DNA from: a virus
Taxonomy: Duplodnaviria > Heunggongvirae > Uroviricota > Caudoviricetes
Length of the DNA: 18,846 bases
IMG/VR virus record: IMGVR_UViG_3300032954_000003
Coordinates: 1-18,846 of that record
Strand: one strand, 5' to 3'
Shown here piece after piece: positions 2,588-13,649 of this stretch (positions within the stretch are counted from its first letter, which is position 1; the number at the start of each line of letters is the position of its first letter). The notes under the pieces are model-generated. The model was not told the DNA's origin, searched no databases, and saw only the letters and a program-made list of their open reading frames with translations. The position numbers were made by a program, and so were the translations under genes.

Positions 2588-2608
2588 CCGCATTTTGCGG
2601 GCTCGTGC

Positions 2609-2637
2609 TTGCGCTAGGCGTACCGATGCGCTAATAT
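2609..2637 (+). promoter_or_regulatory. Sigma70-type promoter of tRNA cluster 1
   Basis: TTGCGC (2609-2614), 17 nt, TAATAT (2632-2637). A near-copy sits at 4110-4138. Confidence 0.7.
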
Positions 2638-2644
2638 GCCGATC

Positions 2645-2686
2645 GCATCCGTTAGCCGTTTCCTCACTTGTCAGCTAGCGGATGCA
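2645..2686 (+). ncRNA. Leader hairpin RNA X0 (12-bp stem)
   Basis: GCATCCGTTAGC (2645-2656) pairs fully with GCTAGCGGATGC (2674-2685), with one G-U. It begins at the predicted transcription start. Confidence 0.45.
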
Positions 2687-2690
2687 ACTA

Positions 2691-2762
2691 GCACCTGTAG
2701 CTCAGTGGACAGAGCATCGGTCTACGGAACCGAAGACAGAGGTTCGAGTCCTCTCGGGTGTA
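2691..2762 (+). tRNA. tRNA-Arg(ACG)
   Basis: Full cloverleaf: acceptor GCACCTG/CGGGTGT, anticodon arm TCGGT-CT ACG GA-ACCGA, T arm AGAGG-TTCGAGT-CCTCT. Confidence 0.95.
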
Positions 2763-2764
2763 CT

Positions 2765-2832
2765 GGACAGGATGGTAGTCACTGCCTGGTCTCCACCACC
2801 AAGGGAAGTCGCTGAACCAGCCATCCTGTCCA
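2765..2832 (+). ncRNA. Structured tRNA-like RNA X1 (degenerate, CCA anticodon-like loop)
   Basis: Perfect terminal inverted repeat GGACAGGATGG/CCATCCTGTCC. An internal hairpin TGGT-CT CCA CC-ACCA is present, but there is no TTC T-loop. Confidence 0.5.
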
Positions 2833-2837
2833 ATTTT

Positions 2838-2911
2838 GCCCATATAGCTCAGCTCGGTAGAGCGCTGCGTTGAAGGCGCAGGCGGCGGTGGTTCAAATCC
2901 ATCTGTGGGCA
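2838..2911 (+). tRNA. tRNA-Phe(GAA)
   Basis: Acceptor GCCCATA/TGTGGGC, anticodon arm CTGCG-TT GAA GG-CGCAG, T loop TTCAAAT. Position 37 is G. Confidence 0.93.
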
Positions 2912-2912
2912 C

Positions 2913-3034
2913 TCGGCCTTAGCTCAGTGTATATCCATAAAGAGCTGCGAAGAAGCGGGTACGGGTAGCGGTGTACAACGTCCGGCCCATGATGAATCGT
3001 GTGTCGCCACTCGTTGGGCAAGTGGCAGGTCGAG
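2913..3034 (+). ncRNA. Enlarged tRNA-shaped RNA X2 (122 nt)
   Basis: 7-bp acceptor-like stem TCGGCCT/AGGTCGA, then TA at positions 8-9. D stem GCTC/GAGC with a 16-nt loop. T-position hairpin GCCACT/AGTGGC lacks TTC. Confidence 0.5.
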
Positions 3035-3037
3035 CCC

Positions 3038-3113
3038 GCCCGAATAGCTCATGCTGGCCGAGCACTCTTGTCTTGTAAACAAGAGATCGCAGGTTCGATT
3101 CCTGTTTCGGGCT
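3038..3113 (+). tRNA. tRNA-Thr(TGT) with 7-bp anticodon stem
   Basis: Acceptor GCCCGAA/TTCGGGC, anticodon arm CTCTTGT-CT TGT AA-ACAAGAG, T arm GCAGG-TTCGATT-CCTGT. Confidence 0.88.
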
Positions 3114-3115
3114 CT

Positions 3116-3193
3116 GGCGTCGGTGTTTATCGCTAAGGTGTGTCGTTTAGGCGTACGACGCGCTGGCTGCGTGTTCAGGGAGCACCGACGCCA
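3116..3193 (+). ncRNA. Structured RNA X3 (long terminal stem plus 9-bp internal hairpin)
   Basis: GGCGTCGGTG pairs with CACCGACGCC, extendable with G-U. Internal hairpin GTGTGTCGT-TTAGGCGT-ACGACGCGC. A GTTCA motif lies at the T-loop position. Confidence 0.5.
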
Positions 3194-3197
3194 ACAA

Positions 3198-3271
3198 GCC
3201 CCTGTTGCCTAACTGGAAAAGGCCACGGTGTTCTAAGCCGTTGCATGAGGGTTCGAATCCTTCCAGGGGTA
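3198..3271 (+). tRNA. tRNA-Arg(TCT)
   Basis: Acceptor GCCCCTG/CAGGGGT, anticodon arm ACGGT-GT TCT AA-GCCGT, T arm GAGGG-TTCGAAT-CCTTC. Confidence 0.93.
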
Positions 3272-3273
3272 CT

Positions 3274-3347
3274 GGGTCCGATGCCGAAGTGGTCGAGGCT
3301 CCTGTTTGTGGAACAGGCACAAGGGGATTCGAGTTCCCCCGGACCCC
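3274..3347 (+). tRNA. tRNA-His(GTG)
   Basis: Acceptor GGGTCCG/CGGACCC with discriminator C, anticodon arm CCTGT-TT GTG GA-ACAGG, T arm GGGGA-TTCGAGT-TCCCC. Confidence 0.9.
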
Positions 3348-3372
3348 TTTGTGGCACGCAATTGAAATACGC

Positions 3373-3968: not shown

Positions 3969-4118
3969 GTGTTCTACTTACCAGAGGGTGATGCTAAGGC
4001 TGCACATGATGCCCTGAGTGCTATTAGGTTGTGCCTGCGTCACCAAACTATCTCACCGCAAGAGGCTGAGGACTGGCGACGCTTAGCAATGACTCGTATC
4101 GGCGAAGGCTTGCACTAG
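3969..4118 (+). CDS. Hypothetical protein (49 aa)
   Basis: SD GGGAGG, then GTG. It translates MFYLPEGDAKAAHDALSAIRLCLRHQTISPQEAEDWRRLAMTRIGEGLH and is too short for the ORF track. Confidence 0.55.
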   Translation: MFYLPEGDAKAAHDALSAIRLCLRHQTISPQEAEDWRRLAMTRIGEGLH

Positions 4119-4138
4119 TCGGCGCGATGCGATAAGAT
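4110..4138 (+). promoter_or_regulatory. Sigma70-type promoter of tRNA cluster 2
   Basis: TTGCAC (4110-4115), 17 nt, TAAGAT (4133-4138). The spacer shares TAG.CG..C.GATGCG with the 2609 promoter. Confidence 0.7.
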
Positions 4139-4145
4139 AGCTAGC

Positions 4146-4244
4146 GCGTCTGTAGCTCAGTGGTAAACCTGAACCTTCGGGGTCAGAAAGAGCGCCGGTC
4201 TTTCAAACCGGAGGCCGCGGGTTCGAACCCCGTCAGACGCACCA
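4146..4244 (+). tRNA. tRNA-Glu(TTC) with an extra hairpin in the D-loop; CCA encoded
   Basis: Acceptor GCGTCTG/CAGACGC-A-CCA, anticodon arm CCGGT-CT TTC AA-ACCGG, T loop TTCGAAC. The D loop is 31 nt and contains CTGAACC-TTCG-GGGTCAG. Confidence 0.85.
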
Positions 4245-4245
4245 A

Positions 4246-4320
4246 GCCCGTATAGCGTAGCTGGCCTAACGCACTTCCCTGTCGAGGAAGGGACCGTGGG
4301 TTCGAATCCCACTGCGGGCG
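4246..4320 (+). tRNA. tRNA-Asp(GTC)
   Basis: Acceptor GCCCGTA/TGCGGGC with discriminator G, anticodon arm CTTCC-CT GTC GA-GGAAG, T arm GTGGG-TTCGAAT-CCCAC. Confidence 0.95.
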
Positions 4321-4322
4321 CT

Positions 4323-4467
4323 GCATCGTTGAGGTTAGCGTAAGTAGTGCATCTAGCGCAAGGGTTGGTACAGCATCGGTACGTAACTAGTGAGTGCCGA
4401 TGCGCGGGATGAGCAACAGGGGCCAACACGGTTATGCACCCCAAAGGGCTCATTGTGTAAACGATGC
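4323..4467 (+). ncRNA. Multibranched structured RNA X4 (145 nt)
   Basis: Terminal stem GCATCGTT/AACGATGC. A 10-bp hairpin joins 4373-4382 and 4394-4403. ATGAGC/GCTCAT encloses GGGG/CCCC. The element exactly fills the gap between two tRNAs. Confidence 0.55.
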
Positions 4468-4473
4468 CAACAA

Positions 4474-4546
4474 GGCCCTATCGTCTAACGGCACAGGACG
4501 CCGACCTCTCCAGTCGGTAATCGGAGTTCGACTCTCCGTAGGGCTA
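4474..4546 (+). tRNA. tRNA-Glu(CTC)
   Basis: Acceptor GGCCCTA/TAGGGCT, anticodon arm CCGAC-CT CTC CA-GTCGG (C at 37), T arm CGGAG-TTCGACT-CTCCG. Confidence 0.92.
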
Positions 4547-13448: not shown

Positions 13449-13451
13449 TAT

Positions 13452-13649
13452 TCAGATGTGCCGCCGCACTGCATCAAGCCGTGGGCAGACGTACCCGCCA
13501 GATCCTATGTCGGTACTAGCGGTACAGCCCGCTCCCATTGCCGTCAGTGCTGACGGGGTGTCCACCGTGTCGAAGTTGCACCGGCAGCGACCGCCGTTGA
13601 CTTTGACGGTCGCCGCCAGCGCACTCTCTAGGCGGCGGCGGAAGCTTTT
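13452..13649 (-). other. Start-less coding-like frame; candidate -1 frameshift extension of 13628-13951
   Basis: It reads KSFRRRLESALAATVKVNGGRCRCNFDTVD...GCTAST..YVCPRLDAVRRHI with high GC3. The entry point is the C_CCA_AAA heptamer at 13652-13646. Confidence 0.5.

Follow-up and report, generated by a model that had tools for sequence, protein, structure and literature searches.

Structured modules between the tRNA genes of a myovirus, probably excised as small RNAs

What lies between the genes of a phage transfer RNA (tRNA) array, and does it merely serve the tRNAs or is it a product in its own right? The question is raised by an 18,846-nucleotide (nt) stretch of DNA (here called the window), the first 18.8 kb of IMG/VR virus record IMGVR_UViG_3300032954_000003 (G000; 82,846 bp), in which tRNA genes are interleaved, within 1.9 kb, with five structured elements that we call X0 to X4. 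Small stable RNAs encoded in phage tRNA clusters have been known since phage T4; what is new here is this array and a two-member RNA family formed by X4 and X4b, a diverged paralogue elsewhere in the genome. Because one of the X elements thus exists in two diverged copies that share a fold, X0 to X4 are probably real small RNAs that are cut out together with the tRNAs.

Arrangement and folds of the X elements

The first cluster runs X0, Arg, X1, Phe, X2, Thr, X3, Arg, His, and the second Glu(UUC), Asp, X4, Glu(CUC) (Table 1). A preliminary description of the locus had placed the tRNAs at positions that ARAGORN and Rfam agree on, and had claimed a strict alternation of tRNAs with other structured RNAs. 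The alternation holds up to Arg(UCU) and breaks down at two points, where Arg abuts His and Glu(UUC) abuts Asp with no X between them. When the flanks of all 30 tRNAs are read, a simple spacing grammar emerges. All seven tRNAs of the two clusters that lack an encoded CCA show the discriminator followed by CU, and the next element, an X or in one case tRNA-His, starts directly after this CU. The spacers are as short as had been described, in that an X starts 2 nt past the preceding discriminator and ends 3-6 nt before position +1 of the next tRNA, with 3' tails of 5 nt in X0 and X1, 4 nt in X2 and X3, and 6 nt in X4. Spacers are not needed for tRNA processing: in the record, eight or more pairs of tRNAs abut directly, 0-7 nt apart.

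A promoter-like motif of the form CTTGCRC, 17 nt, TAnnnT precedes the first element of three tRNA clusters, namely X0, tRNA-Glu(UUC) and, outside the window, X4b, and the three copies also agree at some of the spacer bases. This class differs from the three near-identical promoters of the phage with the form TTGACG, 17 nt, TACTAT (14913, 17142 and 18476 (-)). Considering that the shared motif lies 7 nt upstream and that no terminator-like site was found on the + strand between 2300 and 4800, each cluster would be co-transcribed, which lends support to the single transcript proposed in the preliminary description. The elements themselves were also considered as intrinsic terminators and rejected, given the absence of any + strand site in that interval; X1 encloses 45 nt and is followed by only four U. 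Further copies of the motif, with spacings of 16-18 nt, occur at 4332-4362 (-) in the window and at 67109 (-) and 75566 (+) of the record; the first of these, antisense in the P2 region of X4, is possibly a coincidence.

Table 1. Elements, tRNA genes and promoter-like motifs of the two clusters, and related features elsewhere in the record (window coordinates unless G000 is given; bp, base pairs)
Feature	Position	Strand	Description
Promoter-like motif A	2608-2637	+	CTTGCGC, 17 nt, TAATAT; ends 7 nt before X0
X0	2645-2685 (with tail to 2690)	+	12-bp hairpin, 2645-2656 with 2674-2685; 17-nt loop; tail AACTA
tRNA-Arg(ACG)	2691-2762	+	ARAGORN, Rfam; no encoded CCA, then CU
X1	2764-2832 (with tail to 2837)	+	12-13-bp closing stem, 2764-2775 with 2821-2832; 45-nt structured insert; tail ATTTT
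tRNA-Phe(GAA)	2838-2911	+	ARAGORN, Rfam
X2	2913-3033 (with tail to 3037)	+	121 nt, cloverleaf-like; 7-bp acceptor-like stem, 2913-2919 with 3027-3033; tail GCCC
tRNA-Thr(UGU)	3038-3113	+	ARAGORN, Rfam
X3	3115-3193 (with tail to 3197)	+	11-14-bp closing stem, 3115-3125 with 3183-3193; inner 10-bp hairpin; tail ACAA
tRNA-Arg(UCU)	3198-3271	+	ARAGORN, Rfam
tRNA-His(GUG)	3274-3346	+	ARAGORN, Rfam; abuts Arg(UCU), no X between
Promoter-like motif B	4109-4138	+	CTTGCAC, 17 nt, TAAGAT; ends 7 nt before tRNA-Glu(UUC)
tRNA-Glu(UUC)	4146-4244	+	Rfam only, 67.1 bits (Rfam 4146-4241); encoded CCA; 25-nt hairpin insert in D loop
tRNA-Asp(GUC)	4246-4320	+	ARAGORN, Rfam
X4	4323-4467 (with tail to 4473)	+	145-nt four-helix RNA; 8-bp closing stem, 4323-4330 with 4460-4467; tail CAACAA
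tRNA-Glu(CUC)	4474-4546	+	ARAGORN, Rfam
X4b	G000 59691-59808 (= L011:2192-2309)	-	Diverged X4 paralogue outside the window; X4 covariance model, 37.5 bits, E ~2e-8
Third motif copy	G000 59845	-	Outside the window; ends 7 nt before X4b

As proposed earlier, each X is closed by a terminal stem of its own (12, 12-13, 7, 11-14 and 8 bp in X0 to X4, an overall range of 7-14 bp). Fold stability was expressed as the z score of the minimum free energy (MFE) against dinucleotide shuffles, and terminal stems were compared with 5000 such shuffles per element. By the first measure X0 (MFE -20.4 kcal/mol, z -4.3), X1 (z -4.0) and X3 (MFE -44.2 kcal/mol, z -4.9) fold far better than shuffled sequence, and X4 (z -2.4) moderately better. 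By the second, the observed stem length was reached by 12 of the 5000 shuffles for X0 (counting only 9 of its 12 stem bp), 1 for X1, 175 for X2, none for X3 and 183 for X4.

Could these inverted repeats act as DNA instead, as protein-binding palindromes, as boundaries of recombination or of cassettes, or as scars of small mobile elements? The terminal repeat does differ from one X to the next, as would be the case with independent insertions, and the 0-1 tRNA found in relatives that share the capsid (see below) implies that the arrays were acquired; the palindromes of X0 and X1, taken up again below, would also fit. Yet the + strand, which is the tRNA strand, folds better than the - strand in X2 (by 8 kcal/mol), X3 (by 14.6) and X4 (by 9), an advantage of 8-15 kcal/mol that comes from G-U pairs. 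Such a bias is as expected for RNA helices that contain G-U pairs and argues against a DNA-level palindrome. Likewise, a covariance model of X3 scores 111 bits on the forward strand and only 20 bits on the reverse. No X repeat has a copy elsewhere in the genome apart from X4b, nhmmer taken together with shuffled local alignment of the gaps yielding only the X4-X4b pair (an nhmmer match at 61857-61968 falls inside an open reading frame (ORF)), and the differences between X4 and X4b preserve pairing of an RNA kind, G-U included. A role at the level of DNA is therefore very unlikely.

If the elements are RNAs, are they tRNAs, or what is left of them? None of X0 to X4 matches any of the 4227 Rfam families, either at the gathering thresholds or at E<=10, a set that includes tRNA, transfer-messenger RNA (tmRNA), Y RNAs, GOLLD, ROOL, ribozymes and riboswitches. 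GOLLD, ROOL and the Y-like RNAs, to which the preliminary description had pointed, are accordingly no more than analogies. As for tRNA itself, RF00005 gives no match at E<=10, and ARAGORN calls none of the elements a tRNA even when introns are allowed and the thresholds lowered; as read from the sequence, X2 has neither GG in its D-like loop nor TTC in its T-like loop. These searches, the folds and the strand bias bear out the earlier view of the gaps as structured RNAs other than tRNA. Other identities were rejected in turn. For tmRNA, ARAGORN gives none by default and RF00023 does not match; lowering the threshold to 80% produces only implausible permuted calls that span tRNAs. For protein-coding spacers, no frame led by a start codon fits; the overlapping ORFs all overlap tRNAs as well and have no Pfam match. 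Self-cleaving ribozymes and riboswitches are likewise set aside on the Rfam result.

The elements might still be decayed or remodelled tRNA genes, functionless relics of a longer array. X2 has tRNA-like traits, with its acceptor-like stem followed by TA at positions 8-9, a 4-bp D-like stem (GCTC/GAGC) and a 6-bp hairpin that abuts the 3' acceptor strand; X1 and X3, at 69 and 79 nt, have about the length of a tRNA; and the X elements fill exact tRNA slots, such as that occupied by His after Arg(UCU). Decay, however, yields mismatches, not perfect stems of 11-14 bp that run straight through the positions of the unpaired tRNA residues 8-9, and the compensatory changes between X4 and X4b described below signify continuing selection. 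Taken with the lack of any tRNA signal in Rfam at E<=10 or in relaxed ARAGORN, this makes an origin as relics quite improbable.

X4 and its second copy

The key result concerns X4, which is built of the closing stem, a P2 hairpin, a 10-bp P3 hairpin and a 3' domain comprising P4 and P5. When a covariance model made from X4 only was run over 125 kb, the one further match was X4b, which covers the whole model. It stops 4 nt short of tRNA-Gly(GCC), with which another tRNA cluster opens. Two further gaps in that cluster, 141-142 nt long, are free of ORFs (z about -2.1); after them come two ORFs between tRNAs, one of 31 codons and one larger. The relationship is distant enough that blastn and nhmmer do not see it; in a shuffled local alignment among all non-coding gaps X4-X4b ranks first of the gap pairs, at a z score of only 3.6.

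Folded by itself, X4b forms the same closing stem, P2 and 3' domain as X4. In the alignment of the two, pairing is kept in 95.7% of cells, a figure that falls to 31-39% once the partners are slid. Both members have changed in eight pairs, four of them among the eight of the closing stem, two within the 3' domain, and one each in P2 and P5. These changes keep the RNA pairing, G-U pairs included. On this comparison X4 is an RNA structure under selection for its fold, the conclusion resting on the compensatory pair changes in X4b; the paralogue provides covariation support with no homologue from outside the genome. The preliminary description had looked to compensatory changes in homologues as a check on its predictions. 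They are found for X4, in a paralogue, and X0 to X3 have no homologue in which covariation could be counted.

Conservation extends to unpaired stretches: GAGGTT, which follows the closing stem, AAGTA in the loop of P2, and further GGGTT and AGCAA. The middle arm P3, by contrast, shrinks from 10 bp in X4 to 3 bp in X4b. Five bases of the P2 loop could pair with the P5 loop (4348-4352 with 4436-4440 in X4), and the same pairing is possible in X4b with one G-C to A-U switch; this loop-loop interaction is a candidate only, the 5' strand being offset by three bases between the two loops. The family (window 4323-4469 and G000 59691-59808 (-)) may be summarized as an 8-bp closing stem, GAGGTT, P2 with an AAGTA loop, a variable P3, and a 3' domain that abuts the closing stem. 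Models of either X4 or X4 plus X4b, run over the remainder of the genome, 29 related virus records and 150 genomes of the Solirubrobacterales, the likely host order (see below), detected no third member.

Searches at the level of primary sequence led no further. In blastn against 50,697 phage records, every match at E<=1e-5 to the region 2590-3360 (771 nt, holding X0 to X3 and their tRNAs) was to a tRNA, and X2, X4 and X4b alone gave none at E<=10. The X3 covariance model found no second copy. Scans for exact words turned up no homologue of X4 in viral contigs or of X2 in genome contigs; for X3 they gave two matches in metagenome contigs, both in unrelated DNA with no tRNA array, one of them (L070) inside coding-looking sequence. 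Against 401 genomes of the likely host order, among them one unpublished genome (G255) on which no conclusion depends, X4 gave only short GC-rich chance matches, and X2 was not found in 301.

Proposed release from the precursor, and action in cis or in trans

How would an RNA of this kind be freed? In the scheme that we envisage, X0 to X4 would be structured non-tRNA modules within promoter-driven tRNA operons. A cut after each discriminator, by RNase Z-type cleavage or by an endonuclease followed by trimming, would leave CU plus the X, and RNase P cleavage at +1 of the next tRNA would then free the X as a discrete RNA. Indeed, the cuts that mature the flanking tRNAs would necessarily liberate each X. 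With paired ends (7-14 bp) and only 2-6 unpaired nt, the product would be expected to resist exonucleases, and X0 and X4b, which sit at the predicted start of transcription, would keep a base-paired triphosphate 5' end. Once released, the RNAs would most probably have a trans-acting role in infection, like the one assumed for RNAC and RNAD of T4.

The most serious alternative is that the X elements act purely in cis, as folding insulators, as signals for docking or cleavage (sites of RNase III or RNase E, for example), or as stabilizers of 5' or 3' ends that assist tRNA maturation, and are then degraded, with no function of their own. X0, X1 and X3 are indeed simple stem-loops flush with the tRNAs; X0 and X4b lie at predicted 5' ends, where a hairpin would stabilize the whole precursor; the stacked 14-bp and 10-bp stems of X3 resemble phage RNase III sites; and there is no homologue of X1 to X3 to show a conserved loop sequence. 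RNase III, however, usually needs roughly 20 bp, and the stems here are of 7-14 bp. Furthermore, X2 and X4 are multi-helix RNAs of 121-145 nt, beyond the needs of an insulator, and X4 and X4b keep unpaired stretches and the candidate loop-loop pairing in addition to the closing stem. A role in cis only is thus rather unlikely. On balance, we favour over it the view that the X elements are released along with tRNA maturation as discrete, stable small RNAs that probably act in trans, because the many abutting tRNAs of the same genome need no spacer and because X2 and X4 are too elaborate for insulators.

A more specific proposal concerns what the released RNAs might do. The acceptor/T-arm minihelix of tRNA is a substrate of RNase P, RNase Z and the CCA-adding enzyme, and the terminal helices of X0, X1 and X3 have the length of an acceptor plus T stack (12-14 bp). 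In X1 and X3 the first paired position is a G preceded by a U; in X0, X1 and X3 an unpaired A follows the 3' strand. On the other hand, the elements have no T loop or elbow and carry large structured inserts instead, and the tails of X0, X1 and X3 (AACTA, ATTTT and ACAA) are not CCA. Conceivably X0, X1 and X3, together with X2 and X4/X4b, mimic the top half of tRNA, are processed and CCA-tagged by the host RNase P, RNase Z and CCA-adding enzyme, and serve as decoys or sponges against tRNA-directed defences or for tRNA-binding factors. If so, decoy modules would protect the near-complete tRNA set of the phage itself. We regard this proposal as improbable. Decoys for anticodon nucleases or for tRNA-sensing defences, and recoding helpers, had been suggested as conceivable roles in the preliminary description.

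Several observations weigh against the release of functional RNAs. No homologue of X0 to X3 was found anywhere searched, and none of X4 outside this genome, so that structural selection is seen in X4 only, from two sequences and an alignment that was fitted to the model. For X2 (z -0.7) the fold is not more stable than in shuffled sequence. Either strand of X0 and X1 folds equally well, both being perfect Watson-Crick palindromes, and they hence carry no strand information. A generic sigma-70 scan rejects the copies of the CTTGCRC motif, for which reason we infer promoter function from recurrence and position. Finally, the other clusters of the record alternate tRNAs with small ORFs, not with RNAs, so that the presence of something between tRNAs does not point specifically to RNA modules.

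The small ORFs are found at G000 27487-29100 (-) and 58542-59043 (-), with the ATG 1-5 nt after the end of a tRNA; examples are one of about 62 codons in 27637-27836 and a 31-codon ORF led by a Shine-Dalgarno sequence in 59044-59169. It would thus appear that the tRNAs of this record punctuate mRNAs as well as RNAs.

Known systems, host lineage and other arrays

The nearest precedent for small RNAs released from a phage tRNA cluster is found in T4, where RNAC and RNAD, the species 1 and 2 stable RNAs, are about 120-140 nt long. They are transcribed from the tRNA region and their function is not known (PMC3014915); both have been detected as RNAs by Northern blot (PMC9697503). The X elements resemble them as non-tRNA RNA genes of similar size, encoded on the tRNA strand within a phage tRNA cluster. 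The likeness is one of kind and not of descent, in that blastn of X2, X4 and X4b against the 50,697 phage records finds nothing. Moreover, at least five modules are interleaved one-for-one with tRNAs here, three of them simple long hairpins; the host of T4 is Escherichia coli, while here it is likely an actinobacterium; and the X elements are known from sequence alone. Considered by itself, the array adds an instance and one RNA family, and no new principle. It is nevertheless a compact case, with five modules in 1.9 kb and precise borders, from a phage whose host probably belongs to an almost unstudied soil order of actinobacteria (Solirubrobacterales), and it offers defined constructs for asking whether tRNA-processing enzymes release such RNAs and what the RNAs do.

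YrlA and other Y RNAs also have a terminal stem formed by their 5' and 3' ends and a tRNA-like module, and they often lie near tRNAs in actinophages. Since actinophages such as Streptomyces phage Comrade encode Ro beside tRNAs, we examined whether the X elements might be Y-RNA-like partners of a Ro60-type protein, of the YrlA class. The overall shape fits, in that the two ends together form a terminal stem and X2 and X4 have features resembling tRNA, and the tRNA-Arg of Comrade, which encodes its Ro-like protein beside the tRNAs, resembles that of the present phage. Against this, neither YrlA (RF02553) nor Y_RNA (RF00019) matches at E<=10, and no TROVE/Ro60 domain (PF05731) was found in the 82.8-kb, possibly incomplete record or in 61 genomes of the Solirubrobacterales, the inferred host order, in a search whose controls were positive in two genomes known to carry Ro60. 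This is the least probable of the explanations considered here. In Comrade itself (L054, 68326-76397) the Ro-like gene lies just upstream of the tRNA region, and an unannotated 272-nt gap between tRNA-Ala and tRNA-Lys is a candidate site for a Y RNA.

Two further comparisons can be dealt with more briefly. GOLLD and ROOL are often found beside tRNAs and in phages or prophages (PMC5737381). They run to several hundred nt (ROOL averages 581 nt), as against 41-145 nt for the X elements, which match neither family. The leader-trailer processing stalks of rRNA and RNase III sites of the T7 type share with the X elements an end-to-end helix that marks off a module in a polycistronic precursor, but the X stems, at 7-14 bp, are shorter than typical RNase III substrates, and tRNA processing alone would explain the flanking cuts.

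What kind of phage carries the array? The record (G+C content 53%) encodes a large terminase, portal, head protease, major head protein and tail sheath, and on the strength of these genes it is a myovirus of about 83 kb. ARAGORN finds 29 tRNAs in it; tRNA-Glu(UUC), recognized by Rfam only, is missed by ARAGORN because its D loop holds 25 extra nt. An assembly in ENA (sample ERZ27256576) contains a 108,815-bp contig whose genes and coordinates match the 82,846-bp record, so that some 26 kb may be missing from the IMG/VR record, despite its rating as complete by CheckV.

The enlarged D loop also bears on the host. More than 120 GTDB species genomes (L071-L190), nearly all Solirubrobacterales, carry the same D-loop-insert tRNA signature, as do seven IMG/VR virus records (G001/G002 and G025-G029), five of which were retrieved by a pattern search for this tRNA. 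In addition, a chromosomal tRNA-Arg of the Solirubrobacteraceae is 89% identical to the phage tRNA-Arg(ACG). From these two similarities, the host is probably a soil actinobacterium of the Solirubrobacterales, and the oversized D loop is therefore probably a trait of the host lineage that its phages have copied. Few clustered tRNAs are present in the 120 host-lineage loci in which tRNA spacing was followed.

Relatives of the phage shed some light on the history of the arrays. The 24 IMG/VR records related through the capsid (41-57% identity of the major capsid protein) have only 0-1 tRNA each and so offer no arrays for comparison; judged by their tRNA content, the arrays are a lineage-specific gain. 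A neighbouring protein of 154 amino acids has three distant homologues, and two of their contigs (L013 and L014) have no tRNA array. Four flanking proteins gave no match in IMG/VR, and one protein searched in JGI metagenomes gave none there.

A second array of similar design is present in IMGVR_UViG_3300039286_000350 (G029, 108 kb), one of the records with a D-loop-insert tRNA, which has about 31 tRNAs in 9 kb (L062:1-9200 (-)), 57-81% identical to those of the present phage. Its gaps hold many stem-closed modules of 58-240 nt, flush against the tRNAs, and terminal stems at p<0.08 occur in 9 of the 19 gaps of 40-260 nt. None of these modules can be aligned with an X element, and after masking of the tRNAs the D-loop-insert tRNA is the only element that the two arrays share; a stem-closed element from G029 was absent from the 401 Solirubrobacterales genomes searched. 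In the window itself, a sixth stem-closed element lies at 13449-13556 (-), just upstream of a solitary tRNA-Lys(UUU) and with a 12-nt tail (MFE -48.9 kcal/mol, z -3.3).

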